NCBI RefSeq assembly: GCF_037042905.1
Contig: NC_087251.1
Coordinates: 45,572,001-45,636,000 of the forward strand
Direction of reading: 5' to 3'
From: Lytechinus pictus
Taxonomy: Eukaryota
DNA: 64,000 nucleotides
In this document: positions 1-60,304 of the stretch, one piece after another
Numbering within the stretch: the first letter of the stretch is position 1
Layout: every line of letters starts with the position of its first letter
Program-made: the position numbers and the translations under genes
The notes under the pieces: generated by a model
Database searches by the model: none
The model's input: only the letters and a program-made list of their open reading frames with translations
Told to the model about the DNA's origin: nothing

Positions 1-491
1 CAAATAAAATTACCACCAGCAATCAGCACACCTAACGTTATACATGGCAATATACGAATAAAATAATACGATACGATACACTACACGAAGATAAACGATA
101 CTAGTTATAATCGCGATAAATCGAGACATGAAAAAGTTAATAACGATAATGACGTCATTCAAGATGGCAACTTGCAAGAAAAACCGTCAGGTCAGGTGAA
201 AATGTCTTAGATGACAGATTTCTCAATCATCCAGAGGATTTTTTTCAATAACTCCGGCCCAAGGTATGCAATTAGCTTAAGTTATCTATATTACACTGAT
301 AATGGAAACCATGAAAATGTCAATTTTGCCTAAAAAAAGTTTTAAATCGCGATCTATAAAACGCTAGTTCACTATACGTTGGCTGTAGGTAGGGGCCCCC
401 TCCGCTTCAGTCTATGTATGGTGAGTGAGCCAACGCAGTTCAGCGGAACAACCAAAATACAGAGACTGAAGCTTTTGGTCTACCTCAGTAC

Positions 492-624
492 CTGAACAGA
501 TGCCAGAAGTGGCTGCCATGAAATATTTCCCTTTGCGGAACTGTAGTCTAACATCCTTTGGAGTTTGGCCTCTCATCATCTCCTGGAAGTTCTTCTGCAT
601 ATCAGGTGCTCCTGTTGACGTCAT
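492..624 (-). CDS. DGLUCY: Probable first coding exon of a D-glutamate cyclase (DGLUCY/C14orf159, UPF0317/DUF1445)-like gene; rest lies left of the window
   Basis: ATG at 624, then 44 codons +1 nt to a donor TCAG|gtactg at 492/491. Peptide TPKDVRLQFRKGKYFMAATSGICSG resembles the recalled UPF0317 N-terminus (P..VR..IR.G....PTSG...GY.QANLVIL). Lies in a CpG-richer region. Confidence 0.6.
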
Positions 625-1010
625 CCTTCAATAATCGTTTCTAAGGCTCAGTGAACCTAGTACTAGTAGTAGTCTTACTACTCTTGACTGAGCTGAGCGG
701 AGGCCCTGACTGCGGAGCTCGCCGTGCGGAGCTGAGGCTTGAGCGGTGAGGCTGAGATTGGGCTTAATTCGAACTTGTGCTGTTCGTTGGTTCGGAAAAT
801 GTGTAGGCCTTTACCAAATGAATTATGATCCCTGATATGAGCCGGGCAATTAGCTTAGTTTAACTTTTAGACCCGGTTTTCAAGAATATCCTCTCGAATA
901 TCCTTCTCCGACCGACCTTGGTTTGTTTCCACTCGCCTCGACAGAGTTTACTACACTGTCATGTGACAAGACAAAGTCACATGACCAGTTACGCCTATCA
1001 TCAGGTGACA
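625..1010 (-). promoter_or_regulatory. Putative promoter/5' UTR region of the DGLUCY-like gene
   Basis: Locally CpG/GC-enriched. Possible UTR intron (donor TTG|gtaaag near 815, acceptor ctag near 657). Paired GTCATGTGAC/GTCACATGAC E-boxes at 958-967 and 976-985. Confidence 0.4.
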
Positions 1011-1089
1011 TTTGTTTATCTTTGCGAGATGTTCTTTAATCGGGGCAAAATCGGGGGCAAAATGAATGTTACCCCCTTCCCCATCATAA

Positions 1090-1670
1090 GAAGAAGAGGA
1101 AGGAGATAGAGGAAAGAAGGGCTGAGGAGAAGAAGAAGAAGGAGAAAGATAAGAAGAAGAAATAAAAAGGAGGAGTAGGATGTATGAGAAGGAGAAAGAG
1201 AAGAATAAGAACAGAGAAGAATAATTAAGGAGAAGAGGTGAGAGAGAAGCTAGGAGATGAAGGAGCTAGAATAAGGAGGATAAGAAGAAGGAAAAAAAAG
1301 AGGAGTAGGAGGAGAAGAAGAGGAGGAGGAAGAAGAAGGATAAGAGAGAGGAGAAAGAGAAGGAGAATAAGAAGAGAAGAATAGGAGGGAAAAGAGGAGG
1401 AATATGATTAGGAGAAAGAGAATGGGAGGAGAAAGGGAAGGAGAAGGGAAGGAGAAGGGGAGGAGGAATAAGACAAGAAGGAGAAAGAGAAGGAAAATAA
1501 GAGGAGTAAGGTATGAGAGGAGAAGATGATGATAAAAAGGGGGAAGAGGAAGAAGAAAACAAATTGAATAAAAAGGAGGTGAAGAGGATGAACAGAAGGA
1601 GAATAATTTAGAAGAGATAGAGTGAAGAAGAGGGAGGAGAAAGTAAACAGGAGTGGAAGAGAAGGGGGAC
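1090..1670. repeat. GA-rich low-complexity polypurine tract
   Basis: Almost exclusively A/G (gaagaag, gaggag) for about 580 bp; second copy at about 8220-8545. Confidence 0.9.
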
Positions 1671-2128
1671 CAGATGTGCACTGACAAAGAGTGTGACTTT
1701 GCCTTTCAATTTTTATAGAGCTATGATCTGTTTGTTTATAATGGTATGTTATGACCAGTCATTATTCTTATGTATAAACAAAACGTCTTCACTTATAAAA
1801 CAATGAAAGCGTGAAGCATGAGCTGGACTTTTTTTTTTGGGGGGGGGGGGTGTTGAAATAGTGACCTGCAAGTTGCCAATTCTTGCCTCCTTATTTTCTT
1901 CCATTTCTTTTCTTCTTCCTCATATTTTTTTTTGCCTTTCCCTTTTTTTCCCCCTTTTGTTCTTTTTAAACCTCTGATTTTTTTTGTGGGAGGGGGGGGG
2001 GGCAAAATTATATTTTGCCCCCCCCCCACAAAAATATTCCGGCAACAAACAAACCAGGCAGTCAGACCAGCATACTCCAAATTCTTGAGTTGTCGGTTGT
2101 AATTCTACTGGTTCAAATGTTGAGATGG

Positions 2129-2314
2129 GCTAAGCTGAAAGGCCTTTCAATTTACATCAATGAAAATCTAACACGGAAGCGATCTCAGCTGTTCTGGCAA
2201 GTAAAGAAGGGAAACCTCCCGCAAGTCCACAAAGTCTGGACTCAAGACGGAAGAGTAACAGCGATGAATAAGAGTGTAAAGGACCTCGGAAAACTTGACC
2301 AATTGAAGGAATGA
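2129..2314 (+). pseudogene. C-terminal remnant of LINE ORF1
   Basis: AKLKGLSIYINENLTRKRSQLFWQVKK...KVWTQDGRV matches the typical ORF1 C-terminal pattern (I.INE.LT..R..LF....W..DG.I). Starts exactly at the insertion junction. Confidence 0.75.
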
Positions 2315-2685
2315 GACAACAATATCAATCAAATTCACTGAACTGTAATACTTGGTCTGCTTGAGCACACAGGCGAATTCCTGTTTACTATTTGCTTTAA
2401 ATTGCACTATTAAATATACGATTTGTTTTTAATAACGTTAATCACTAGAACTTGGTTCTTATTTTATTGAATATTTGTATAAAATTACATTCATTACTTA
2501 CACGTAATACTTTTCACTTGTTTTGAAGTGTGACAATTTACATTTTATTGTTATTGTTGCTGTTGCTATTTTGCACATATTCGGGTTTTTCATGTATATA
2601 TATTTGATAATTAAAATGATTAATGTATATAAATTGCTTAGAGTGGAGGAAGTAAAATCTCAACCTAATTTCAACATAAGATTTA

Positions 2686-5600
2686 ATGATTAAATACCCA
2701 TGTTCAATTTGTAATAAATCTGTTAAAATAAATCAAAAGGCTTTGTTATGCACTGTATGTTCACAGTGGGTGCATATAGTTTGTGGCGGGGTCTCAAGAG
2801 AGACCTATGATTCAGATGAACTGTTTGAAAATTGGCAGTGCCCGAAATGTATTCTCCAAAGTGTATTACCTTTTTGGAATGATCCTGATCTATCTACTGA
2901 AGTCGTGTATAACTGTAATAATATTTCTGTCGACGCACATGATGATATGTCAACCGAAACTAATGATTTTGCTCTAAAAGATATTAAAGGTATAAAATTA
3001 GCTCATCTTAATGTCAGAAGCATTGTTAATAAAGTTGCTGATTTACAATGTTGGCTGAATAATAACCCTTATGATCTACTAGGAGTGTCAGAAACATGGT
3101 TAACAAAAGAACATTCTGATAGCTTGATTTCTGTTAAAGGTTATAAGTTTGAGAGGAAGGATAGATGTACTCATGGAGGTGGAGTGGGATGTTTTATATC
3201 AGAAAATTTATCGTATATAAGGAGATTGGATCTTGAATCTGTTGCCTTAGAAATAATTTGGTTGGAGTTGCAACGTAGCAATAGTAGCTCATTATTTATT
3301 GGTATATTGTATAGAAAACCGGATAATCATTTAGATTTTTTTGACAGTCTTGAAAGTAATCTTGAGAAATTGTATACAGTTACAAACAACGTCATCCTTC
3401 TTGGTGATTTTAACTGTAATATGCAAACCATAAATAATCTTTCTAGAAAAGTTTCCAGTCTCCTTACTACAATGCAAATGACACAGGTTATATCTGAACC
3501 CACTAGAATTTCACCACATAGCCAGTCAGTAATCGATTTGGTATGTATTTCTGATGCACTTGTTGACAATATTATTAAGTCAGGAGTGCAGTCAGCTGGA
3601 CTTAGTGATCACTCTGTGATTTTTACTGCAATTAAAGGGAAACATCAATCCCTTTCTCCGAAAATAACTAAATGTCGTTCATTCAAGTACTTTGACAGTG
3701 AGAAATTTAAAGATGATGTAAGGAAAGTTGATTGGCATGAGTTTTATTCCTGTGGGACTGACGTTGAAAAATTGTGGCACTACTTTAAAAACACACTCCT
3801 GGACATTTGTGACAGGCATGCCCCCGTGATATCAGTGCGGCAAAAACAAAGAGGGGTACCTTGGATAAATGATGATTTTTTGGTGTTAGCACGCGAAAGG
3901 GATTATTATCGAAAGCAATTTAGAAAAACTAGATTAATTTATTGGTGGAATAAATTTCAGTTTTCCCGTAACAGAGCTAATAACTTGATTAAAAATTTGA
4001 AAAAGAAGTATTATCAGGACAAATTTAAGGACTGCGAAAATGACATAAAAAAGAACTGGAACATTTTATCGAAGCTTATACCTAAGAAAAATAAAACCAC
4101 GAGTCATGATGTTAAATTAACAATTGATAATGATCAAATACCTAACAATGAAATAGCTCACGTTCTAAACAAAGCCTTTAATGAAGTCGGCTCAAGGTTG
4201 CAAGCCGCTTCGGGTAATTTCTCGAAAGATTTATTAAACAATTTACAAACTCTGTTTATTCCAGATTGTGAATTTAAATTTTATGCAATCAAAAAGGAGT
4301 ATGTTTTGAAAGAACTATTACATATTGATTGTTCGAAAGCGGTCGGAGTAGATGGCATTCACCCTAAGTTTCTCAAGCTGGCAGCAGAGAGTATAGCTGG
4401 CCCTTTAACCCATTTATTTAATGCAACTTTACAAACTAGTGTTATTCCAGAAGATTTTAAAACAGCAAGAATTACTCCTGTACATAAGGGAGGATCATTT
4501 GATATTGACAATTATAGACCAATTTCTGTGCTTCCAGTCCTGTCCAAAATACTAGAGAGAGCAATACATGATAAATTGTATAAGTACTTAAATGTAAATG
4601 ATCTACTTGCAAATTGTCAGTCTGGCTTCAGACCGTCTTATTCTACTGCCACTTGTCTAACTGAGATTACAGACTTTTTGTATGATAAAATGGACCGAAA
4701 ACATGTTACTGGTGGTATTTTCTTGGACTTACGCAAAGCTTTTGATGTTATTCCTCACAATTTTATACTTGCAAAACTTAAGTACTATGGTATTACTGGC
4801 AATGAATACAACTGGATGGAATCGTATTTAACAGACAGAAGGCAATTTGTAATGATTAACAATTGTCGCAGTGAATTTTTGAAGATAAAATCAGGTGTCC
4901 CACAAGGATCTATACTGGGTCCATTGATATTTTGTATTTTTATTAATGACATGTGTAATTTGAAATTGCATGTACATTCTAAAATGTCTCTTTATGCTGA
5001 TGATACCGCCATTTTTAATCACGGTGAATCAATTAAGGAGGTACAAAAGTATTTGCAAGATGATTTTGATTCAATAAGTAAATGGCTAGACTTAAATAAT
5101 ATGCATTTACACCCGCAAAAAACAAAAGCCATGGTATTTGGTCAAAAGAAAAAGTTGAGGGGTGCTCATTTGTCAGTGAAATTCAGGAACATACAATTAG
5201 AAAATGTAAAAAAGATTAAATACTTAGGTGTCATGCTCGATCCGGGCTTGACTTGGTGCGAACATATTACTAATATCGTTTGTAAAATATCTCGGGCAAT
5301 AGGTTGTGTAAGGCGGATTAAGCACTTACTGTCCTTTGATATTATGAAGAAGCTGTACTTTTCTATGGTTTTACCTTACATTGATTACTGTATTACATCT
5401 TGGGGAAGCAGTGCAAAAATACATTTAGGTAAGATACAAAAACTTCAAAATAAATATGCCAGAATGCTTTTGAAAAAAGATTATAATACATCACAAATTT
5501 CTTTGTTGCAGTCACTGAAGTGGCAATCAGTAGATCAGCGTATAAAATATCAGTATTGTGTTCTTGTATATAAAATAATGAATGATTTAGTTCCAAATTA

Positions 5601-5814
5601 TTTAAAACCTTTAGTATGTAAACGGCCCGTGAAATACAGGACACGGTATTCTTTACGATGCCCCCTTCAGCTTCCCAAAGCTAGAATTGAACATAAAAGA
5701 AAATCTTTCGCATATGTCGGACCCAAATTATTTAATGCACTTCCTTCAAATTTACAAGTTTGTACCTCCTTGTTAGTTTTTAAAAAATTATGCAAAGCCT
5801 TTCATACGAATTGA
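2686..5814 (+). CDS. LINE ORF2: PHD finger + apurinic-like endonuclease + reverse transcriptase (1042 aa)
   Basis: N-terminal C4HC3 PHD (CSIC..CTVC..H..C..CPKC). APE motifs HLNVRS, SETWL, GGGV, LGDFN, IDL, SDH. RT motifs NYRPIS, QSGFR, FLDLRKAFD, GVPQGSILGP, YADDT, KYLGV. No stops or frameshifts. Confidence 0.97.
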   Translation: MIKYPCSICNKSVKINQKALLCTVCSQWVHIVCGGVSRETYDSDELFENWQCPKCILQSVLPFWNDPDLSTEVVYNCNNISVDAHDDMSTETNDFALKDIKGIKLAHLNVRSIVNKVADLQCWLNNNPYDLLGVSETWLTKEHSDSLISVKGYKFERKDRCTHGGGVGCFISENLSYIRRLDLESVALEIIWLELQRSNSSSLFIGILYRKPDNHLDFFDSLESNLEKLYTVTNNVILLGDFNCNMQTINNLSRKVSSLLTTMQMTQVISEPTRISPHSQSVIDLVCISDALVDNIIKSGVQSAGLSDHSVIFTAIKGKHQSLSPKITKCRSFKYFDSEKFKDDVRKVDWHEFYSCGTDVEKLWHYFKNTLLDICDRHAPVISVRQKQRGVPWINDDFLVLARERDYYRKQFRKTRLIYWWNKFQFSRNRANNLIKNLKKKYYQDKFKDCENDIKKNWNILSKLIPKKNKTTSHDVKLTIDNDQIPNNEIAHVLNKAFNEVGSRLQAASGNFSKDLLNNLQTLFIPDCEFKFYAIKKEYVLKELLHIDCSKAVGVDGIHPKFLKLAAESIAGPLTHLFNATLQTSVIPEDFKTARITPVHKGGSFDIDNYRPISVLPVLSKILERAIHDKLYKYLNVNDLLANCQSGFRPSYSTATCLTEITDFLYDKMDRKHVTGGIFLDLRKAFDVIPHNFILAKLKYYGITGNEYNWMESYLTDRRQFVMINNCRSEFLKIKSGVPQGSILGPLIFCIFINDMCNLKLHVHSKMSLYADDTAIFNHGESIKEVQKYLQDDFDSISKWLDLNNMHLHPQKTKAMVFGQKKKLRGAHLSVKFRNIQLENVKKIKYLGVMLDPGLTWCEHITNIVCKISRAIGCVRRIKHLLSFDIMKKLYFSMVLPYIDYCITSWGSSAKIHLGKIQKLQNKYARMLLKKDYNTSQISLLQSLKWQSVDQRIKYQYCVLVYKIMNDLVPNYLKPLVCKRPVKYRTRYSLRCPLQLPKARIEHKRKSFAYVGPKLFNALPSNLQVCTSLLVFKKLCKAFHTN

Positions 5815-6264
5815 TAAAGAGCGAAATGATATTCCTTTGATTTACAATGCTATGTATGTTTAAATTGTCACTTCCCACTCTATATTTTGGTGTTAATTGT
5901 TTCTGATGTTAGATATTTTGTATTTTTGATGTTGTTTGTTGTTGTTGTTCATAGTTATCTTGACATGTATTTTAAACTGCAGGGCGCCTTTGTAAAGCAG
6001 TTTTAAGAACTGAACAGGCCTACCCTGCAGTATAAAATAAATAAAACAAAATAAATAAATAAATAAATAAATAAATAAGAGGAGTAAGCTGAAATTTATG
6101 TCAAGAGTTAAAGATGTCAGCTGTCAAAATATCAGATAAAAATAATAAACAGATGTATGTTTTGATTAATCCAGAAAGGAGGTACACCTACGGTAGAAAA
6201 AAATCATGACAAAAGTGAAAATTTGTAACAGGTAAAAATGTCAGAGGAAGATTTTGTTTTTCTC

Positions 6265-6858
6265 AAAGGCTTCTGTCCACTGCATAAAAATGTTGATTTG
6301 AATCAATAGAGAAAAATCAAAGAAGAATATAGTGATGAATATTTCATCAAAATAGGATGTTATAAGAAAGTTAGGACATTTTAAAGTTTTGCTTATTTTT
6401 CTCCAAACAGTAATATGCACAACTCAGGGATATGCAAACAAGAGTTGATGATATGTCCCTCACTCACCATTTTTGTTTCTGTTTGAATTACACTATATTT
6501 CATTTTTCATATATTTGACTATAAGGACCAACTTGACTGAACCATGAAATGTTAAAATAATGATAATTCCACATGTTGCGTGAGGAGAAAACTTTGTTTC
6601 ACAGGTAAATGAGGAGCAAATTAGAATATTTCATATAATAAAATACAAAAGGAATAGTGAGTGACGTCATCAGTCCCCTCATTTGGATACAGACCAGGAT
6701 GTGCATATAACTGTTCTGTGAAATTACGCGAAACTTCAAAATGTCATAACTTTGTTACGTCTGATTTGATGAAATGTTCAGTGCTATGCTTGTTGGATTA
6801 TTCTCTTTTTATTAAAAAAACACTTTTTTTTTGGGGGGGGGGTGGACTTGTCCTTTAA
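6265..6858. mobile_element. Non-autonomous TTAA-flanked DNA element (Kolobok-like), left end degenerate
   Basis: Ends ggtggacttgtcc-tTTAA. Homologous to 59704-60304. Duplicate at about 9180-9761. Confidence 0.7.
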
Positions 6859-7339
6859 AGGCGAAATTCACCTTGAAAATAAGTTGGTTTTGATGAAAGT
6901 AGATAAAATTGAGAAAACTATTAGTGAAGGTTTGATTAAAATCTGTCAATGAATGAGAGATTTATGAAATATTGAAGTTTTGTAAAGTCATTTGTGAGTA
7001 GCTTCCACATGTATCATGTTATATATTTTAACAGAACATAGTGAATAAAAATATTTTTCAATAAGGGGGCGACAAATGATGTGTCTAATCAAGGAGATAT
7101 CACCTCTAAGAGGTGATATCTCCTTGGTCTAATGATATATCCATTCCACAAAATATGAAATCACTTTATTTTTATGTGACATTAAAAAAAAATTGTATCA
7201 CATGACATAAGGAGTTGTCTACGACATCACAAATTTTCACATGAGTTTAAAGATTCTGAACATAAAATCTTTAAAAATATTCATCTCCAGTTTTTCTGAT
7301 TTTATGAAAACAATTTGTTAGGATGAACGTCCCCTTTAA
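6855..7339. mobile_element. Second TTAA-flanked element sharing the TTAA at 6855-6858
   Basis: TTAAaggcgaaattcacc ... ggatgaacgtcccctTTAA imperfect TIRs. Confidence 0.6.
7090..7126. mobile_element. 37-bp perfect palindrome with 7-bp flanking direct repeat (minimal TIR-only element)
   Basis: caaggagatatcacctct-a-agaggtgatatctccttg flanked by gtctaat (7083-7089, 7127-7133). Copy at 9989-10025. Confidence 0.7.
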
Positions 7340-7556
7340 GTAGGCTTCTAATGTCAGATGAAGGTTTCAATATGGATCTGCCAAATTGCTTACAATAGAA
7401 ATAACCATTTTAATTTTAGTTATAAAATAAAAAATCTATAAGGATTTTATACATAGGTTCATGTGAGACACGATTTTTCATGATTTTGTATAAGGTGTTT
7501 TGCAACAGTTTCTAGAAAAATACATTTGTTTTTTCCATTTCACAGAGATGGTTTCA

Positions 7557-7709
7557 GGGCCCCATAGCATAAAAGTTATCATTATGGTAACTCAAATGGT
7601 AACTACCACAGAATCCTTGATTTAGATTGGCTGATTAGCATTGTTACCATGGTAGTTACCATTTGATGGAAAAGTTACTATAATAGTAACTTTTATGCAA
7701 CGGAGCCCT
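7557..7709. mobile_element. MITE (GGGCCC-type TIRs); duplicate at about 10439-10579
   Basis: gggccccatagcataaaagtta ... taacttttatgcaacggagccc. Confidence 0.75.
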
Positions 7710-8219
7710 GATATCCCTCTATATTCAGTATAACATTTTTCTGAGGTTAATTGGCACGCAGGTTGTCTGGGACAAAGTCTACGAAATTCTATATTAATTT
7801 ATTTCATGCCAATCGCTATTAATTGATTATGCGTAATTAGTATGCAAACTCATACTTTTTCCTCTAACTCGATAATTAAAGCACCAAATGTCTACATCTT
7901 TGGTGTAGAAACTCTTTGTTGGGTTCTTAGCAAATGTGCATGACATGACACTTGCGACATCAGATCAATTTATGTATTATATTGTTTTTTTGCAATTTCT
8001 TACGCATTTTTTCTTTTTTACTTTTTGTTTTTCATTGTTTTTTTCTATGAACTTTTGAGATCATAAATAGCATTAAATAAATCCATTTAGACCAGCAAAA
8101 CTAAAAATAATCATACATTTATGATTTTTGGTTGAAAACACAACACGAAATCACATTCTTGAGCAATTTTTGGTCTGACATGCACTTACAAAAATGTTAC
8201 GTAATTTCAGAACCGCGTA

Positions 8220-11117
8220 TAGAGAATAGGAGGAAAAGGAGGAGGAATATGATTAGAAGAAAGAGAATGGGAGGAGAAAGGGAAGGAGAGAAGGGGATAA
8301 GAAAAAAAATGATAACAGAAGGAGAAGGAGGAATAGGACAAGGAGAAAGAGAATGAAAAAAGGAGAAGAAAAATAAGAGGAGTAAGGTATGAGAGGAGAA
8401 GATGATGATAAAAAGGGGGAAGAGGAAGAAGAAAACAAATTAAATAAAAAGGAGGTGAAGAGGATGAACAGAATAATTTAGAAGAGATAGAGTGAAGAAG
8501 AGGGAGGAGAAAGTAAACAGGAGTGGAAGAGGATGACGAGAAGGGGACCAGATGTGCACTGACAAAGATTGTGACTTTGCCTTTCAATTTTTATAGAGCT
8601 ATCATCTGTTTTATTCTGTTTGTTTATAATGGTATTTTACGACCAGTCATTATTCTTATGTATAAACAAAACGTCTTCACTTATAAAACAATGAAAGCGT
8701 GAAGCATGAGCTGGACTTTTTTTTTTGGGGGGGGGGGGGTGTTGAAATAGTGACCTGCAAGTTGCCAATTCTTGCCTCCTTATTTTCTTCCATTTCTTTT
8801 CTTCCTCCTATTTTTTTTTCGCCCTTCCCTTTTATTCCCCCTTTTGTTCTCTTTAAACCTCTGAAAATTGGGGGCAAAATATAATTTTGCCCCCCCCCCC
8901 ACAAAAAAAATTCCAGCTACAAACAAGCCAGGCAGTCAGACCAGCATGCTCCAAATTCATGAGTTGTCGGTTGTAATTCTACTGGTTCAAATGTTGAGAT
9001 GGTGTTCAAGAGGAGTTAGCTGAAATTTATGTCAAGAGTTAAAGATTTCAGTTGTCAAAATATCAGATAAAAATAATAAACAGATGTATGTTTTAATTAA
9101 TCCAGAAAGAAAAAAAATCATGACAAAAATGAAAATTTGTAACAGGTAAAAATGTCAGAGGAAGATTTTGTATTTCTCCAAGGCTTCTGTCCACTACATA
9201 AAAATGTTGATTTGAATCAATAGAGAAAAATCAAACAAGAATATAGTGATGAAAATTTCATCAAAATAGGATGTTATAAGAAAGTAAGGACGTTTTAAAG
9301 TTTTGCTTATTTTTCTCAAAACAGTAATATGCACAACTCAGGGATATGCAAACAAGAGTTGATATGTCCCTCACTCACTATTTTTGTTTCTGTTTGAATT
9401 ACACTATATTTCATTTTTTATATATTTGACTATAAGGACCAACTTGACTGAACCATGAAATGTTAAAATAATGATAATTCCACATGTTGCGTGAGGAGAA
9501 AACTTTGTTTCACAGGTAAATAGGAGCAAATTAGAATATTTCATATAATAAAATACAAAAGGAATAGTGACTTCATCAGTCCCCTCATTTGCATACCGAC
9601 CAGGATGTGCATATAACTGTTTTGTGAAATTACGCGAAACTTCAAAATTTCATAACTTTGTTACGTCTGATTTTGATGAAATGTTCAGTGCTACGCTTGT
9701 TGGATTTTTCTCTTTTTATAAAAAAGCAACTTTTTTTTGGGGGGGTGGACTTGTCCTTTAAAGGTGAAGTTCACCTTGAAAATAAGTTGGTTTTGATGAA
9801 GTAGATAAAATTGAGAAAACTATAAGTGAAGGTTTGATTAAAATCTGTCAATGAAGAAGAGATTTATAAAATATTGAAGTTGTGTAAAGTCATTTGCGAG
9901 TAGCTTCCACAGTATCATGTGATATATTTTAACAGCACATAGTGAATAAAAATATTTTTCTTCAATAAGGGGGCGACATATGATGTGTCAAGGAGATATC
10001 ACCTCTAAGAGGTGATATCTCCTTGGTCTAATGATATATCCATTCCACAAAATATGAAATCACTTTCTTTTTTATGTGACATTAAAAAAAAGTTATATCA
10101 CATGACATAAGGAGTTGTCTAAGACATCACAAAATCAAGAGTTTAAAGTTTCTTAACATAAAATCTTAAAAAATATTCATCTCCAGTTTTTCTGATTTTA
10201 TGAAAACAATTTGTTAGGGTGAATCCCCTCTAATGTCAGATAAAGGTTTTTATATGGATCTGCCAAATACTTATAATAGAAATAACCATTTTAATTTTAG
10301 TTATAAAATAAAAAATCTCTATAAGGATTTTATACACAGGTTCATGTGAGACCCATTTTTCATGATTTTGTATAAGGTGTTTTGCAACAGTTTCTAGAAA
10401 AATACATTTGTTTTTTCCATTTCACAGAGATGGTTTCAGGGCCCCGTTGCATAAAAGTTATCATTATGGTAACTACCACGGAATCCTTGATTTAGATTGG
10501 CTGATTAGCATTGTTACCATGGTAGTTACAATTTGATGGAAAAGTTACTATAATAGTAACTTTTATGCAACGGAGCCCTGATATCCCTCTATATTCAGTA
10601 TAGCATTTTTCTGAGGTTAATTGGCACGCAGGTTGTCTGGGACAAAGTCTACAGATTTCTATATTAATTTATTTCATGCCAATTGCTATTAATTGATTAT
10701 GCTAATTTATGCATAATTAGTATGCAAAATCATACTTTTTCCTCTAACTCGATAATTAAAGCACCAAATGTCTACATCTTTGGTGTAGAAACTCTCTGTG
10801 GTGTTCTTAGCAAATGTGCATGAAAAACTTGCGACATGAGATCAATTTCTTAAGCATTATATTGTTTTTTTGCAATTTCTTATGTATTTCTTTGTTTTTT
10901 CTTACTTTTTGTTTTTCATTGTTTTTTTCTGTGAATTTTGTCGGGGACTCTTCTGAAATCATAAATAGCATTAAATAAATCCATTTAGACCAGCAAAACT
11001 GAAAATAATCATACATTTATGATTTTTGGTTGAAAACACAACACGAAATCACATTCTTGAGCAATTTTTGGTCTGAAATGCACTTACAAAAATGTTACGT
11101 AATTTCAGAACCGCGTA
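8220..11117 (+). repeat. Tandem duplication copy 2 (uninterrupted, empty LINE site at about 9002-9008)
   Basis: Aligns by eye with 1376-2128 and 6077-8219, with scattered substitutions and indels. Confidence 0.9.
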
Positions 11118-11267
11118 CCCGGGCGATGCAAATTTGGTCTCAAAAGATGTGCAAGACTTGAAAGTAAAAAGTCAGTCAGTGAGTGGCGCGGTCAAAAAAA
11201 TTTGCATGGTGAAAATATTGCGCGAATCATTGGGGGGGGGGGGCCTCCAAGGCCTAGATTGAGTTAA
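10605..11267. mobile_element. Right part of a non-autonomous DNA element ending ...gagTTAA (piggyBac-like end); truncated copy at about 7733-8219
   Basis: Copy 1 stops at the duplication breakpoint. Copy 2 continues to poly-G ggcctccaaggcctagattgagttaa. Confidence 0.4.
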
Positions 11268-11969
11268 AGCATAAGGTTGTTTAGCATGAAGTTTATTGAG
11301 GAAAGAATTTTATTTCATGTTTATTTCATTGAAATGATTTAATTTTAGTGTAAGGTTTTTAGTATTTCAAGGTGGTTTAAGTAGAAGTTTTTTAAAAATA
11401 TAATGTGTCTGTATGTACAAGGTTTTGAAGCATATGTAAAACTTAAATCCATATGCTGAAAAAACCTTATACTTACAGCTTTATATTTATTGCCTAATGC
11501 TGACAAAATTACAGGTATAAACTTGTGCGGAATAACATATGCATTAAACTTAAAATCTTCTGCTTTAAAACCTTTAAGTATGGCATGACATTCTTGGCAA
11601 CGAAATTTGACTTTGGGGGGATATCATGAGCGTGTTTTAAATGAAAATAAAACCTTGAATTCATAAAGATGATCATCAAACATTGTAAACATTACAAATA
11701 AATACCATCCGAAAAAATACATTTCATTTCAGCATTTCATTTATTCATTTCTTTCATATTCAGCATACACATGCACTTTAAGTAACAGACAAATCACTTG
11801 TGATTTCACATAAACCATGATTTTCATATGTTTTCCATATATCTTCTTTTTATTTCTTTTCTCACATTTGGAGATGGTTTTCAGACAATTTGATCTACAA
11901 ATCACACATAACTACATCATAATGGTTCATGAGAATAAAAGATTACAGAAAGAGGGTGAAAGGAGACCA

Positions 11970-12488
11970 GGGCCCCGTCTTACAAAGAGTTACAATTGAT
12001 CCAATCAATCGTAACTCTATGGAAATCTATCAGTGTCATAATTTTTCTACAGGAAATGTGCAAAATGTCCTTTGAAAACAAAGGAGAACACACCAAACTG
12101 TCAAGAAATCAATGAATTTATGGATATACATTCATATGTAGAGAATTTTTATTAGCAAACATGCATTTTATGACTTTGCTTGCTTTCCATAGTTGCGATC
12201 AAACGGATCAATCACAACTCTTTGAAAGACGGGTCCCAGGGCCCTGTTTTACAAAGAGTTGTGATTGATCCCATCAACTACAAATATGGAAAGCCAGCAA
12301 TGCCAAAATCGAACACACAAGTGTATTCAAATTGGTTTCTCATTCGATGTTTTGACAATTCAGTGTGCCCCTCGTTGTTCACAAAGGACACTGTGCGGAT
12401 TATTTCCTGTAAGAAAAACTTAGACAATGATGGATTTCCAGTTGAGGTTGATTGAATCAATTATAACATCTTTGTAAGATGGGAACCT
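11970..12488. mobile_element. Two related MITEs back to back (11970-12237, 12239-12488)
   Basis: TIRs gggccccgtcttacaaagagtt/aactctttgaaagacgggtccc and gggccctgttttacaaagag/ctttgtaagatgggaacc. Confidence 0.8.
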
Positions 12489-15213
12489 GGCTTTTCTTAC
12501 AAATATGTCAAATCAATTGCAGTCAATTACAACTTCATGTTATACACAGCTGATATTTTGTTTGTCAAATTGGGGAAGGGCCCATGAAAAATTGAATAAA
12601 TCATGATGTTTTTTATGTTAAAATTTGTAGGTTTTTTTTTACATGAAATTATACCAATTGAAGACGATTATGAGAAGTAGGCACTGTTGTCTACAAAATA
12701 GTTGAGATATCAGAGAGAAAATTGATAAAAATCATATAGGAAATATCCTATATCCAATTCGACACTGTGCTTCTTATTATGAATACATACGATCCGTGGA
12801 ATATTTCATAGAACATATAGTGATTCTCAACCCAAAGTGCTTGCATCTGATTGGCTCAGAGTAAATACGTCAGTAAAACTCACTCATCATTGGTTATTGG
12901 TCATGGTGTTAATAAACTTATTTTATTATGGCAGTATGGTCTAAAGATAATTTTTTTTGAGAAATCTATTTTTCAATATTTATGACCTGGCAAGTAAGAT
13001 AAAAAAAAGAAAATACATGTACATGTTTGGGGATTTTGGTCTGCATCATATCATATTATGAACTACAAAGTGGAAGATTTCATAAATTGTTCCTTGGTAT
13101 GCCATTCCATGGGAGCAAATACTGTCATAAATTCTCTGATTTTTTTATAAAAAATGCAATGATTTTGTAATATTGCTCTGCAAATTAAGTAAAAGAAAAG
13201 AATAAAATCAAACTATAGTTTCTGAAGACTTTCTTTCAACAATACACAAGTTCTGTCACCACTCCAACTCATATACTCAAATGCTTTCTATTTTATAGAT
13301 ATTTTGAAAAAAATATGTACATTTCTCTCGCAATAGTTTCATAATATTCTGCTAAAGCACATATAGAAAGAACAAATATTTACACAACATAATATTGATA
13401 GAAAACAAAAATGGAATTTCACAGGATGTACATAATAAAATATTTCAAAACACATAAAAATGACAAATACAAAAATAATGCTGCCCTGAAAAAATCATTC
13501 ACGATTCAGAATCTATATTTTTTTTCTTCTAAAAATGAAAGCATCGTATCAGGTTGAACGGCAACTTATATGACAAAAAAAATCTTCAATATTTCTTGAT
13601 TTTCATGATTTGGGCTTTTAAATACACATATTATTGGATTTCGAATGGGTAATTTAGGGATCATAATTCGTGATTTGCCTTGTTTTATTTGATGAGAAAA
13701 ATATTTCAATTAATTGGAGTTCTGAAAGAAGTACACATACACATGGCACTATTCAAACTAATACTTGGTAAATTCCTAGACTTAAACCAAGACAAAGAAA
13801 TTTAAAAAAAGGCAATACAGCAAAACCCATCGTGGGCTGACAAGAATTGCGGCACATAAATAACAAAGTCAATCATACTATAAATAATAATGCAAATTGA
13901 AATATTTAAAATGTAAAACTAAAAACACTGGAAAAAAAAATACAGAAGAGGTATACGTGAACAACAAATAAGCAATATTGTCAACAAAATAATTTTAAAA
14001 CACGAATAATAGTAATGGATTGTCAAAGTATTTTGATTGATTGATCAAAAGGAAGGATATGAGCAATCGTTATAATTTTAAACATGGGTAAGTAACTTCT
14101 GAAGGTTTTCATGGCAAAGAAAGACCGAGTGCCAAAGTTTCACCGTATACATGTTTTGGTCCTGAAAAGGACCACCCAAACTCGGCGTTCCGAAAAAAGT
14201 GTTCTTAACATGGCATGAGACAAAGCCATGCAAGCAATTTAGTTAAGATATCTTAAAAGATGAAACAAAGACAAAAATATTTTTCAAAACAAGAAAGTAT
14301 CCCCAAAAAGTATCTGGAGGATAAAAAATTAGCACGGTTAGCACCTAAAAATGTCTTGTGTAGTTCATTAAACAGTCAAAATCATTTTTTCTTTCAATTT
14401 CCATAGATTCCATAGATATAATGAATCTTCTTGATTGTGTATTGATTTCAAAGCGAAGAAATAATTTGTGATTTTAAACTTATATCTTGAAAGCACTCGT
14501 ATCTATTTACCATGTTGGATGAACTTGGAATGGATAGAAAGAAGAAGTATGAACCTCACTGTGTCAGAGTGAAAGTGCGTGCTGGTAACAAATATAATGC
14601 AACTTATACTTTGTTACATTAATAAAAGACAGCCAATTTTTCTCAGGTTTTAGCAAAAATCCTGCTCATCTCCTTACCGGTACTTCCCCTTTTCTGCATT
14701 GGCAAAACAATGTGGGGTGGGAAGGTGTGGAGTGAAATAATGGATTCTTTCCCACAAGTATAACATTTGAAAACAAAATATAAACAAATAATTCATAAAA
14801 AGCATTCACCATGTGCAATCTGAACATGGCTGACTCAGAATATAGAGGAGCAAGCTTTTACTCATACACCATGTACCAACATTCCATAATGTTGACAAAA
14901 AGACTGGCATTGGTTGTAATGGGGTACCACATTCCAAGACAGAATGAATGTGTGTCCTCATGACTCCACATGAATAGAAGAATGAAAGAAGAAGCTTCGA
15001 AGACACTGGCAAGCACAAAGGTTTAGCAATGGTCGTAGCACAAAGGTTTAGCAATGGTCGTAGCACAATGATTGATCACATAGACTACAATACATCATCG
15101 ATCATTAAAATCAAGGATACGATCAATTACTAAGCCTTGTGTTACAGGCCCCAGGTAGGTAGCATACTTGGAAAGCCTCGTCAGGAGAGGAAAAATTTAT
15201 GACAAGCAAAACA

Positions 15214-15429
15214 GGGGGGTGTTTCACAAAGATTTAAGTATGACTTAGAGTCGTACTTAAATACCGAGTTAAGTACAGTATGAAAAGCTTGACCACATTG
15301 GTCAGATCGTGTCATGAGGACGCGCACTACTGCGTATCTATCAATGAGATCGCGCGTTCCATGTAATGTACCCATTGACATTTTTAAGAGCGATTTAAGT
15401 CATACCTAAATCTTTGTGAAACACCCCCC
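15214..15429. mobile_element. MITE
   Basis: ggggggtgtttcacaaagatttaagtatgactta ... taagtcatacctaaatctttgtgaaacacccccc, flanked by cag. Confidence 0.85.
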
Positions 15430-15689
15430 AGGTCATGGAAATAAAATAGCTACACATATTGTTATTGGTAAATCAGTTCCATCAAATTGAATGGATCTAT
15501 CTATTTGAAGACATTGGTTCTTTCTTGTTTATATACTACATGATATAATAACTCTCTGGTGTGGAAATGTATATCATTACAAGGTGAACTATATTTTGTT
15601 CCATCATTGATACCATACCATAATGCATATGCTGATTAATACAATAAATTACCGATTGGTCCACATCTGCCTTTCCTACTTTCTGTTTC

Positions 15690-16015
15690 GGTGTTTGGTC
15701 TCACCCAAATTAATCCAATCCTAATTTGTCTACAACCTGTTTATCTACTATTCATTTGGTCTAATTGCCATTTAGCCCTGTTACCATTTGTCTAATTTCC
15801 GTTTAGGCGAGATACTTATTTAATCCAATATCCGCTTGGTCTAATGACACTTGGTCTATATGGTAAAATCAAGTGTTTATGAACCAAATTATGGAGCGGA
15901 CATTAGATTACAAGGGCATTGGACTAAATGAGAAATAAACTAAGTGGGTATTAGACTAAACGTGGTGTAGACCACACAGCAGTTAGACCAAATTGTTAGA
16001 CTAAATTGGTTTTGC
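15690..16015. repeat. Foldback-like element of degenerate short repeats; related half-copy at about 61030-61150
   Basis: Repeated ttggtctaa/ttgtctaa motifs in the left half, their complements ttagacca/ttagacta in the right half. Confidence 0.55.
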
Positions 16016-16500
16016 CCATGTTGAATAAAATTATCTGAGAAGTAGATATACTGCTTGCAGAACGAGTGAAAGAATTAGCCATTCAAGCGGGTGCCGTATT
16101 GAAGGGCAGACATTATCGTAACACGCCCTAGAGTACACAATGAAAATAACAAAACAATTACTGTCTCATGAGATACATTTCACTCTAGAAAATTGTAATA
16201 CTAAACTTATGTGACTTTTAGAAAATCTGAATACCATGATCTATCAAATGGTACATGTCCAAAGTTGTGCAAATCACATGGAATCATCATCAAATTTACT
16301 TTACTGTAAAAGGAGTTGTTTTGCACATTTCACAATAACAATACTTTGAATAGCTTTTTTTTATCTATTAGTCTTTGTCTATATACAACATCTCACACTG
16401 ACATTAATGTAAACTTGCACAAACCAAGACAGATACATAAGTCTTCAGGCCACCTATAACCTATAAAGCTAATTTATATATCTATTTGGTTAGAATACAC

Positions 16501-17262
16501 TCAGACACATCCATATTCATACCACACCGAGTTCTTTTTAGGAGGATCCTTTTCCTTATCCTCTTTAGAGGTTGCTGGTGTTGGTTTTGCTTTGAGAGTT
16601 TTCTCTGTGGCAGAGACGGGGCGAGACTTCGGGAGGGGTACGGGAGGTTTTCCGCTGGGGCCCTTGGTCTCTGCATTGCCAGCCGTTTTAGCCGGTGACC
16701 TTCTAACGTTAGAAGGGCTGGAATCCGGAGAACCAGCTATGTTGACGAGACGTAACCTAGCCTCAAGGTTTGCCAGGTTCTCTTTGGTCAACATGTCTTT
16801 TCCTAGAGGGCTCAATTGTTCGCTGGACTTGCTCATTTCCCTTGCCGCATTTTCAATGGGGATTGACTTGGCTTTGATGGGCACATTGTCAGGATAGTGT
16901 GGCTTTGGCTTTATCACCTTTGTACTCCCTTGGGAAGGTAAGGCATATGAAGCAGATGACTGAGATTTGTTGTCCTCCCGGGAATTCTGCTTGGTGTACG
17001 GCCGTGCCGTGTACGCAGATGAACCCAAAGCACCCTTACTACCGGGGACAGGCTGTTTCTCCCGCTTCGGCGATCGGACAGTGACGATCTCCTCCTCCTC
17101 ATCGTCCAGAACTTCAAACTCCACATCCTTGACAGTTCGCTTGCTGCTGTCGTTGACCGAATGAAGATCTCGTGTTACGGACGCCTCGATGGAATCCTCC
17201 GATCCGTACGTCTTGTGGGGTGCCGTTGCGACGGGGCCATCGACCTCAGTTGCTTGAGGGTG
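16501..17262 (-). CDS. CCDC88C: CCDC88 last coding exon (HPQATEV...NSVWYEYGCV*)
   Basis: Strong acceptor attccttccctgcag|CAC, phase 0. 762 nt to TGA. Ends in the Daple-type PDZ-binding motif. Confidence 0.9.
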   Translation of the reverse strand, partial: HPQATEVDGPVATAPHKTYGSEDSIEASVTRDLHSVNDSSKRTVKDVEFEVLDDEEEEIVTVRSPKREKQPVPGSKGALGSSAYTARPYTKQNSREDNKSQSSASYALPSQGSTKVIKPKPHYPDNVPIKAKSIPIENAAREMSKSSEQLSPLGKDMLTKENLANLEARLRLVNIAGSPDSSPSNVRRSPAKTAGNAETKGPSGKPPVPLPKSRPVSATEKTLKAKPTPATSKEDKEKDPPKKNSVWYEYGCV

Positions 17263-47096: not shown

Positions 47097-48165
47097 CTGA
47101 GAGCTTCAATTTGTTTCTTCAACCTCTCCACCTCTGCCTCCAGGTTCTCATTCTCCCTCTCCAGCTTGTGTATGGTATCCTTGTTGAGCTCCACCACCTT
47201 CTCCACCCTCCTCTTCTCATTACCTAGCTTCATATTATCCACCTCCAGCTGTCCCGCCTTGTCCTGCACCGTCTTGATCCCCTCCACCATGTTCTGGAGC
47301 TGTCTGTTCTCCCTCTCGCACTCCTCCTTATCGTGCTCCATCTCCGTGATCCGCGTTGCCATGCCCTTCATGGCATCCAGCGACCTCTGCAGGGTCTGGG
47401 TGTCCGCTTTCAACCTCACGTTCTCATTCTCCAGGTGCTCCAGACGTTGGATGCGGACCTTGGCCGACTCCAGCGCCCGCGTCACCTTGCTGATCTCCAC
47501 CTCCAGCTCCGTGTTGTTCTTCTCCACCTCGTCAAACTTTTCACACATCAACTTGAGCATTTCAACATTCCTCGATAGTTTTTCCTTCTCCAGTTCCAGA
47601 GCCTCATTGCTCTTTTCCAAGTCCTCAATCCTGTCTGTCCTCTCTTTCAATCTCTCCAACGATTTCTGCAATTGCTTTGTCTCGTGTTCCGCTTTGGACA
47701 GTTTACTCTGATTATCCATCATGTCCTCCAACAACTTCCTGTTCTCCTTTTCAACATCCTGTATCCTCTGGTCGACATCCTTTTTATTTCTTTCCCGCAG
47801 GGTTTCTATCGTCCTTTCCAACTGCTCTTTCTCCGTATCCCATTCTTTCTGATACCTCTCAGAATTCTCCTTGATGGTCAAGATGGTGTCATCCAGAGCC
47901 TTCTTTTCTCGCTTCAGGACACTGTTCTCCTGTTCAATCTCAAGATGACCAGACATCTCCTTGGAGCTGGCCTCTTGCACTTTTTCAAGCTTCCGGCTGA
48001 GTCTTTGATTTTCCTTCTCGACCTCGAGGAGCCGAGTCTGCGCTTCTAACCCGGCAGATTCTCGCATTGTTTCCATCTCGCGATGGAGTCTTTGACATTC
48101 TTTTTCTAATTTGAGCACTTTACTTGAAGCACTATCATTGCACTCTGCTGACAAGGATGCAGCAG
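47097..48165 (-). CDS. CCDC88C: CCDC88 large coiled-coil exon (AASLSAECND...QIEAL)
   Basis: aacag|CT ... AG|gtaagt, 1069 nt, phase 1-2, heptad-rich E/K/L sequence. Confidence 0.95.
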
Positions 48166-48942: not shown

Positions 48943-49013
48943 CTGATGGATAACAACAGTAATAATTGTGAATGTATAAAGCACAATTTCTGTACGGATT
49001 TACTCTATCTGGA

Positions 49014-49110
49014 CCTTTAGCCTTAGACACTCTGCCTCGGCAAGGTGGCCCTGTTCCAGCTTGTCGTTAGCGGTGGTGACCTGCTCATAAAAAGAGGGAC
49101 TTGGTTTTCA
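49014..49110 (-). repeat. Intronic duplicate of part of the neighbouring exon (48819-48914)
   Basis: About 95 bp near-identical: cctttarccttagacactctgcctcggc...gtgacctgctc...gggacttggttt. Confidence 0.9.
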
Positions 49111-58885: not shown

Positions 58886-59703
58886 ACCATGGAGCTTTAT
58901 TCTTATCTCCATGCATTAACAATATTCTGATGCAGAACACTAGATTTCAGCTCTATATTAGGAACAAGCCCTATAATAATGGAAAAGATTCCTACTGAAT
59001 CCCTTCAAAGTACAAAGGACAAGGGAAAGAGACAAGTATTCTCTAATTAGACAAGTATTGTCTGTCCAGTAAGTGCAGTTCAGGAGGAAAAATTCTGGAG
59101 ACACCCTCTCATAAACCTAGGTATTTCATTAGAAAGCGTTTAATGCTCTTCCTCATTAAAAGCATCAATGACCATCGGTGCGGCCAGGAGCTTTGCAGAG
59201 CTTGAGCCACCGTCTAGGGCTTCTGTAAGACACATCCTTGAACTGTGCCATCGCCAATTAGGAAACGATGCTTCACAGTGGCTATGCGGATCCTGTCCCA
59301 CAGGAAAGACAATTCTCTGCTGATCCAGCTGACATATACAGACGCCATGAATCATAGATGGGACTAAAGACTTCCATGGCCATGTTCACACTTGAGAAGT
59401 TGGATAAATTTCAGTACCTTCTTGACACCCAATCAACCCTACAAATAAAAGATCTGGATATCTTTTCTCATAAATGTTGGAAGGATGAAGTAGATGATGC
59501 TAATACAGACTCTTGTGTATTAAAAGTCTATCAACATCAAACATGGAACAAGGTCTATGCGCTTCGATCATACATATACATGAATACAGCATATTTAAGC
59601 AATTTGTGTCTGCTATTCAGATCTCATTCAAACACTGACAAAGGAAATAACCTTTAAAACTTACACACGATCAAAATAGAGGTTGAGGTACATCATGCAG
59701 TTT

Positions 59704-60304
59704 TTAAAGGACAAGTCCACCCCAACAAAAAGTTTATTTGAATAAAAAGAGAAAAATCCAACAAACATAACACTGAAAATTTCATCAAAATCGGATGTAA
59801 AATAAGAAAGTTAAGACATTTTAAAATTTTGCTTAATTTCACAAAACAGTTATATGCACATCCTGTTGGGTATGCAAATGAGGAGACTGATGACGTCATC
59901 CACTCACTATTTCTTTTGTATTTTATTATATGAAATAGGGAATATCCTATTTTTCTCCTCCTTGTCAAGTGAAACAACGATTAATTATTCCCTGAACATG
60001 TGGAATGGGCATTGTTTAATACTATATGATTCAGTCAAGTTGGTCCTTATTGTCAAATCCATAAAAAATGAAATATTGTATAATTCAAACAATAAAAAAC
60101 AAAAGAAATAGTGAGTGAGGGACATCATAGACTGTCTCATTTTAGTTGTGCAGATCACTGTTTTGTGAAAAATAAGCATATCTTTAAAATGTCATAACTT
60201 TCTTATTTTACATCCGATTTTGATGAAATTTTCAGCATTTTGCCAGTTTGATTTTTGTCTATTTATTCAAATCAACATTTTTGTGGGGTGGACTTGACCT
60301 TTAA
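59704..60304. mobile_element. Complete TTAA-flanked element (Kolobok-like)
   Basis: TTAAaggacaagtccacccca ... tggggtggacttgacctTTAA. Homologous to 6265-6858. Confidence 0.85.

Follow-up and report, generated by a model that had tools for sequence, protein, structure and literature searches.

Does the close neighbourhood of DGLUCY, the gene for D-glutamate cyclase, and a CCDC88 (girdin-like) gene in the sea urchin Lytechinus pictus preserve a gene pair of the deuterostome ancestor, or did the two genes meet later? The question arises from a stretch of 64,000 nucleotides (NC_087251.1, positions 45,572,001 to 45,636,000), which we call the window and in whose own numbering all positions are given. 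The original prediction placed the first exon of a DGLUCY-like gene behind CCDC88 in this window and proposed deep microsynteny with human 14q32. Both genes are on the minus strand, with 15,876 bases between the DGLUCY ATG and the CCDC88 stop, and RefSeq already annotates them side by side. They are two ordinary genes in tandem, CCDC88 followed by DGLUCY, and most likely each is an independent transcription unit. The reading we favour, with a probability of roughly 0.6, is that they were an ancestral deuterostome pair which has been passively retained.

The first step is the identity of the exon. The minus-strand frame at 492-624, noticed about 16 kb behind the CCDC88 stop, was confirmed together with its donor; it encodes MTSTG...SGICS, i.e., residues 1-44 and the first base of Gly45, and is followed by a phase-1 GT donor at 491-490. 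When the peptide was compared with longer proteins, two candidates were scored and one was returned, P0002, a protein of 632 aa with the record name 'D-glutamate cyclase, mitochondrial-like X1 [Lytechinus pictus]'. The N-terminus of P0002 is identical to the peptide at 44/44 residues (100% identity, E 3e-20) and continues with GYKQAN, in agreement with the GYxQAN-like start expected of the next exon. This identity, and a transcript contig leaving at the donor (see below), rule out 492-624 as a chance frame. P0002 carries PF07286 (DUF1445) at residues 129-270 (179 bits, cut-off 25) and, in the same chain, PF14336 (DUF4392) at residues 312-627 (294 bits, cut-off 27.9); the exons for the latter domain lie left of the window and were taken from the annotated model. 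The peptide is thus the N-terminus of a D-glutamate cyclase as predicted, with the DUF1445 domain recovered in the full protein and not in the 44-aa peptide by itself, which matched zero Pfam or NCBIfam models and gave a single chance match, none relevant, in PDB. The bacterial UPF0317 model NF003969 scores 262 bits over residues 15-272 of P0002, which is under the curated 324 bits of this equivalog and marks P0002 as a homologue rather than a member. Since this alignment begins at residue 15, exon 1 already codes for the start of the domain. Vertebrate alignment rows are 43-47% identical to P0002. A search of the peptide against 1.84 billion representative proteins gave four matches, among them P0131, a relative of 75 aa. 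Another of the four, P0130, is a repeat protein that looks unrelated.

Transcript data show that 492-624 is the coding part only of a longer DGLUCY first exon. Expression evidence came from 4 of 21 listed sequencing runs and concerns the region 60-1075. A 2,783-nt contig from run X1 (probably RNA) fits 491-921 with zero differences and departs at the donor. It defines a 5' leader of 297 nt (625-921, minus strand) which has no upstream ATG and carries an in-frame TGA six bases 5' of the ATG; position 921 is the end of the contig and not a mapped start site. Raw RNA reads from runs X19/X20 cover approximately 502-671 and 774-909 at a depth of 1-6, and every first mate is on the plus strand, which by the rule for most stranded libraries indicates minus-strand RNA. 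Just upstream of the leader, about 40-65 bases from the 5' end of the X1 contig, are two exact, inverted copies of GTCACATGAC (958-967 and 976-985). The window holds three matches to GTCACATGAC against 0.11 expected, and two of these three are the copies at 958-985. Judged from its sequence and position, this E-box-like pair is a putative DGLUCY promoter element, and we take it to resemble the CLEAR motif. DGLUCY probably has its own promoter, approximately 15.6 kb downstream of CCDC88. One contig from run X15 also departs at the DGLUCY donor and has its other end past 1075, beyond the 5' end of the X1 contig. That this spliced transcript reaches at least 1075 would fit an alternative in which the old pair is kept by selection, e.g., through DGLUCY enhancers in the CCDC88 introns or 3' flank, or through read-through transcription. 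On the other side of the donor, the start of intron 1 (1-491, minus strand) contains high-copy repeat pieces at 428-482 and approximately 141-450, beginning about 10 bases into the intron; hundreds of reads fit the piece at 428-482 partly, with loose ends at 427 and 482.

The second step is the identity of the partner. The CCDC88 gene spans 16501-61305 on the minus strand, and its last coding exon (16501-17262) ends in WYEYGCV-TGA with the stop at 16501-16503. P0134, the girdin-like X1 protein of L. pictus (1,752 aa), has 22 exon matches from 50920 down and is 100% identical to the big exon at 47099-48163. A further exon at 61305-61165 is 100% identical to residues 155-201 of L. variegatus girdin. 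As this exon is located upstream of the start annotated for L. pictus, the RefSeq model P0134 seems to be truncated at its N-terminus. In the L. variegatus orthologue, the HOOK domain (PF19047) occupies residues 15-154; no exons for it were found within the window, and P0134 is also without it. The long coiled coil and the WYEYGCV C-terminus are both present, and this ending is common to amphioxus, oyster and coelacanth Daple. The search for homologues covered protein lengths of 623-2,000 residues, and 120 of its 173 matches were listed. In a tree made by a quick method from the first 1,400 residues of 22 proteins, with CCDC88B left out, the echinoderms fall outside amphioxus + (Girdin, Daple) with a support of 99-100. 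The partner is therefore a pre-duplication CCDC88, co-orthologous to Girdin and Daple, and the more specific proposal that it is Daple (CCDC88C) is excluded by its grouping outside the vertebrate Girdin+Daple clade. Within this gene, a segment at 49006-49089 (minus strand) immediately upstream of the CCDC88 exon 48894-48811 is a partial copy of that exon, identical to it at 76/84 bases.

The spacer of 15,876 bases is of unremarkable size. The claim that it holds only repeats is borne out for the most part, though not entirely, as self-repeats make up 6,524 of its bases and a long interspersed nuclear element (LINE) adds to these. The remainder, assigned to neither, must contain the CCDC88 3' untranslated region. 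The LINE ORF2 is an uninterrupted frame of 1,044 aa at 2680-5814 on the plus strand, with an N-terminal PHD finger (PF00628), an endonuclease (PF14529/PF03372) and a reverse transcriptase (PF00078), and has an (AAAT)n tail at 6035-6078; the element is probably young. A local duplication covers 6077-11117, in which 6077-8219 corresponds to 9008-11117 (91%) and 8223-9002 to 1378-2128 (87%). Searching the spacer with stored proteins by tblastn gave zero matches, and so did Rfam families in 1-17000. Long imperfect inverted repeats resembling miniature inverted-repeat transposable elements were observed at 11967-12490, 15214-15429 and 59703-60304, the last being related to 6275-6859 and 9189-9762. 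The LINE and the recent duplications inside the spacer speak against a pair held together by selection, and a shared bidirectional promoter was rejected.

How old, then, is the adjacency? Linkage in other species was read from contig sizes in bp and from RefSeq accession order, and strands were read in this window only. In L. pictus, the accessions of the two genes run XP_063958936-938, then 939-946, an order which agrees with the window and thereby calibrates the method. Both genes were available in 13 species, 11 of them informative; the other two were Sphaerodactylus, represented by the Girdin paralogue alone, and Acipenser sinensis, whose two contigs measure just 142 and 170 kb. Consecutive accessions on one contig were found in four of the 13, i.e., L. 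pictus, L. variegatus (XP_041468123-124, then 125-129), Diadema antillarum (XP_071476219/220 on a 257,706-bp contig and XP_071490160/161 on a 610,845-bp contig) and the brittle star Amphiura filiformis (girdin XP_072031645-653, DGLUCY 654-657). Five more (the urchins S. purpuratus and D. setosum, the sea stars Asterias rubens and A. amurensis, and the coelacanth Latimeria) have both genes on the same contig with non-consecutive accessions; in Latimeria, DGLUCY (XP_064421262) and Daple (XP_064421213) are on one chromosome. The genes are on different chromosomes in the remaining two, the crinoid Antedon mediterranea and Branchiostoma lanceolatum. Same-contig linkage is thus seen in 9 of the 11 informative species, and the CCDC88-DGLUCY pair is probably eleutherozoan-old. 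Among the matches listed, DGLUCY occurs without a CCDC88 row in Holothuria, Apostichopus, Patiria, Acanthaster and Glandiceps, and CCDC88 occurs alone in Anneissia and B. floridae. Of the linkage across deuterostomes that had been proposed, the part concerning urchins and brittle star (neighbours), sea stars (same chromosome) and jawed vertebrates stands, and the crinoid Antedon and amphioxus depart from it.

Which of the two genes moved in amphioxus can be approached through published linkage groups. We assume that XM_030998799.1 is S. purpuratus girdin X1, based on a presumed offset between XP and XM numbers. In the accessible part of Lin 2024 (PMC11175523), this transcript is placed on Sp05, Bf01, Po01, Pf14 and Sc01, and Po01/Sp05/Pf14 are assigned to linkage group A1. 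If the transcript is girdin, it is DGLUCY that was displaced in amphioxus, with CCDC88 remaining on A1. The 3,668-gene table has no entry for DGLUCY under its presumed XM number, which is a weak negative.

In human, a single deletion of 41,543 bp takes out exon 2 of GPR68 together with the three final exons of the neighbouring DGLUCY, as described in the available text of PMC7645613, and the 3' end of human DGLUCY therefore faces GPR68. GPR68 and CCDC88C are named together in human in a passage of PMC6345810, and the mouse order is given as Rps6ka5, Gpr68, Ccdc88c, Smek1 in a passage of PMC4519886 that does not name DGLUCY. Compared with DGLUCY-GPR68-CCDC88C on human 14q32, an orthologous DGLUCY lies within one gene of a CCDC88 member in both species. 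However, the urchin pair has no intervening gene, its DGLUCY turns the 5' end and not the 3' end toward the partner, and its CCDC88 is co-orthologous to both CCDC88A and C. The arrangement has thus changed, in line with the change of orientation anticipated at the outset. Given a minus-strand CCDC88C in human, as we presume, the difference is a simple flip of DGLUCY.

The differing orientation and the intervening GPR68 also fit an alternative in which both genes were on A1 but apart; shuffling would then have joined them once in the stem of the eleutherozoans and, as a separate event, near vertebrate CCDC88C. Vertebrates have three CCDC88 paralogues, which would offer three chances for such a meeting, and a scan of many windows selects for matches of this kind. 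On the other hand, landing within one gene was put at 0.1-1%, compared with 5-30% for the survival of an old pair (assumed ranges), and the same relocations in amphioxus and the crinoid are needed as for an ancestral pair. In a toy odds model with assumed input ranges, the ancestral pair received 0.70 (10-90% range 0.43-0.91), a chance meeting on a shared chromosome 0.21 and two landings 0.08. We regard the chance meeting on A1 as possible but rather doubtful.

The two landings of the odds model stand for a history in which DGLUCY started on another linkage group, as seen in amphioxus and Antedon, and moved beside CCDC88 twice independently. No loss would then be required in these two lineages, and the family may be mobile, as six B. 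floridae and three P. flava members are counted in the text available from Simakov 2015 (PMC4729200). For the same partner to be hit twice is nevertheless very unlikely, which matches the low value of 0.08, and we consider this history highly improbable.

The ancestral pair that we favour would have had the following history. CCDC88 and DGLUCY would have been neighbours on A1 in the deuterostome ancestor. Urchins and brittle stars would have kept the pair, as would jawed vertebrates at their CCDC88C copy, there with a presumed flip of DGLUCY and with GPR68 coming between the two. It would have been broken in amphioxus, with CCDC88 staying on A1 and DGLUCY moving, and in Antedon. Retention would mostly be passive survival in slowly shuffled chromosomes, with no shared promoter or regulatory block. 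Passive retention is suggested by the tandem orientation, the repeat-rich spacer with its LINE and duplications, the vertebrate flip and the two breaks, and no sign of shared function was found for the CCDC88-DGLUCY pair. The one hint of constraint is the survival of the pair in Amphiura, reported in the accessible text of PMC11310086 to have the most rearranged of the sequenced echinoderm genomes, with 26 interchromosomal rearrangements. This survival would be expected if selection maintained the pair, but the pair is broken in two lineages, and in human it is the 3' end of DGLUCY rather than its promoter that faces GPR68/CCDC88C. Selection is a very improbable cause of the retention. When passive and constrained retention are taken together, we consider a deuterostome-old adjacency to be likely.

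Several observations weigh against an ancestral pair. Unlinked intermediate lineages had been named as evidence that would count against the linkage, and such cases were found in part, in Antedon and in both B. lanceolatum assemblies. The Antedon genes are on separate chromosomes of 41,379,608 and 25,047,721 bp. Those of B. lanceolatum are split between chromosomes of 24,230,189 and 31,719,604 bp in one assembly and 24,017,008 and 33,141,815 bp in the other, a result that applies to the best-scoring DGLUCY copy; as six family members were counted in B. floridae in the part of Simakov 2015 concerned (PMC4729200), a second, linked copy is possible. The splits in Antedon and amphioxus mean that two independent breaks are needed. 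In sea stars, accession gaps of 3,867 (A. rubens) and approximately 440-470 (A. amurensis) make the linkage one of the same chromosome, without support for adjacency, and the adjacency in Amphiura is read from accession order alone. The pair is carried by two major lineages, echinoderms and vertebrates, and no hemichordate or holothurian pair is among the 13 species. For conserved ancestral microsyntenic pairs (CAMPs), Irimia 2012 (PMC3514665), in the portion available, needed linkage in four major lineages for a low false-positive rate; our pair, found in two and unlinked in amphioxus, falls short of this rule. Pairwise micro-synteny has approximately 10% false positives according to the available text of Simakov 2015 (PMC4729200). 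Finally, the inputs of the odds model are guesses and not measurements, and the odds of an ancestral pair were shaded down because a scan of many windows favours coincidences.

What DGLUCY itself does in the urchin can be predicted from its mouse orthologue. Mouse 9030617O03Rik/DGLUCY converts D-glutamate to 5-oxo-D-proline, and the architecture of DUF1445 and DUF4392 is common to both proteins, as far as described in the accessible text of Ariyoshi 2017 (PMC5339696). The urchin enzyme probably works in the same way, given this likeness in sequence. The same text states that DUF1445 is kept in vertebrates only (PMC5339696); its presence in echinoderm, hemichordate and amphioxus proteins corrects the statement as worded there. 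Compared with mouse DGLUCY, the urchin protein is more acidic at its N-terminus, where a targeting signal may be absent. The first 30 residues of L. pictus DGLUCY contain 5 basic and 3 acidic residues, whereas five of the five vertebrates counted have 0-1 acidic residues. Presequence-like N-terminal extensions are present in Patiria X1 and in Glandiceps DGLUCY. P0131, which is related to the S. purpuratus exon 1, has a basic, presequence-like extension of 29 residues ahead of the shared Met, at which place L. pictus has an in-frame stop. In both Lytechinus species and Amphiura, annotated DGLUCY isoforms exchange one segment of about 65 residues with a conserved GCSFSF motif (pairs P0002/P0004, P0008/P0007 and P0313/P0013; alignment columns 138-205). 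The variants of this segment are 71% identical in L. pictus and 57% in Amphiura, and the exchange suggests mutually exclusive exons. A single old duplication behind the alternative exon of Lytechinus and Amphiura was rejected, as a tree of 67 columns favours, weakly, two independent events.

The origin of DGLUCY leads outside the animals. Bacterial UPF0317 proteins (PDB 3db9, 2pif) match its N-terminal half (E 1e-49) and archaeal TON_0340 (4dwz, 4fc5) its C-terminal half (E 1e-25), i.e., two separate proteins in prokaryotes correspond to a single polypeptide in deuterostomes. When prokaryotic genomes were scanned with seeds taken from C-terminal patterns, 79 loci from bacteria and archaea were obtained, of which 58 have the C half only, 19 have both halves as adjacent genes (8 in animal order, 11 reversed), one is fused in reversed order (L014) and one has neither. 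The neighbours of six two-gene loci were partly scanned (17 frames), and one of these (L015) has genes with CT_C_D, LamB_YcsF and CT_A_B domains after the pair, the make-up of the 5-oxoprolinase PxpABC. Among the matches listed for DGLUCY (120 of 565), all named rows are deuterostome, one row being without a name. In the part of Simakov 2015 available, the 'C14orf159 homolog' is classed as a G1 deuterostome novelty, and 0 copies are given for the 19 non-deuterostome animals (PMC4729200). This published status, the halves as adjacent bacterial genes (8/19 in animal order) and the pxpB/A/C-type genes after one of them lead to a tentative reading, which we think could apply but would not expect, that DGLUCY is a horizontally acquired bacterial two-gene unit (DUF1445 then DUF4392), fused on the deuterostome stem, that landed behind CCDC88 on A1. 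If so, the urchin, brittle-star and human neighbourhoods would still mark, more than 500 million years on, where a transferred metabolic gene had landed, and the locus would allow transfer and repeated loss to be told apart cleanly as sources of deuterostome novelties.

We found no paper on the CCDC88-DGLUCY pair, which the supplementary lists of PMC3514665 and PMC4729200 could include. The gene names gave zero matches in the supplements covered of PMC11310086 (one file left out) and PMC11175523, PMC6006793 does not mention DGLUCY, and PMC6834745 contains an unordered gene list only. Old gene pairs number in the hundreds, and one further pair is a modest result. To our knowledge, neither CCDC88 nor DGLUCY is a transcription factor. 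As far as CAMPs are described in the available text of Irimia 2012 (PMC3514665), the pair resembles them in joining two unrelated genes that, in distant animals, lie no more than four genes from each other; most CAMPs are head-to-head, whereas the urchin pair is in tandem and human DGLUCY has its 3' end toward the partner. The accessible text of Simakov 2015 (PMC4729200) reports 71 deuterostome-only micro-syntenic blocks, which require three or more genes, whereas here there is a pair without a transcription factor. Like those blocks, the pair is common to an ambulacrarian group and chordates (Simakov 2015, PMC4729200).

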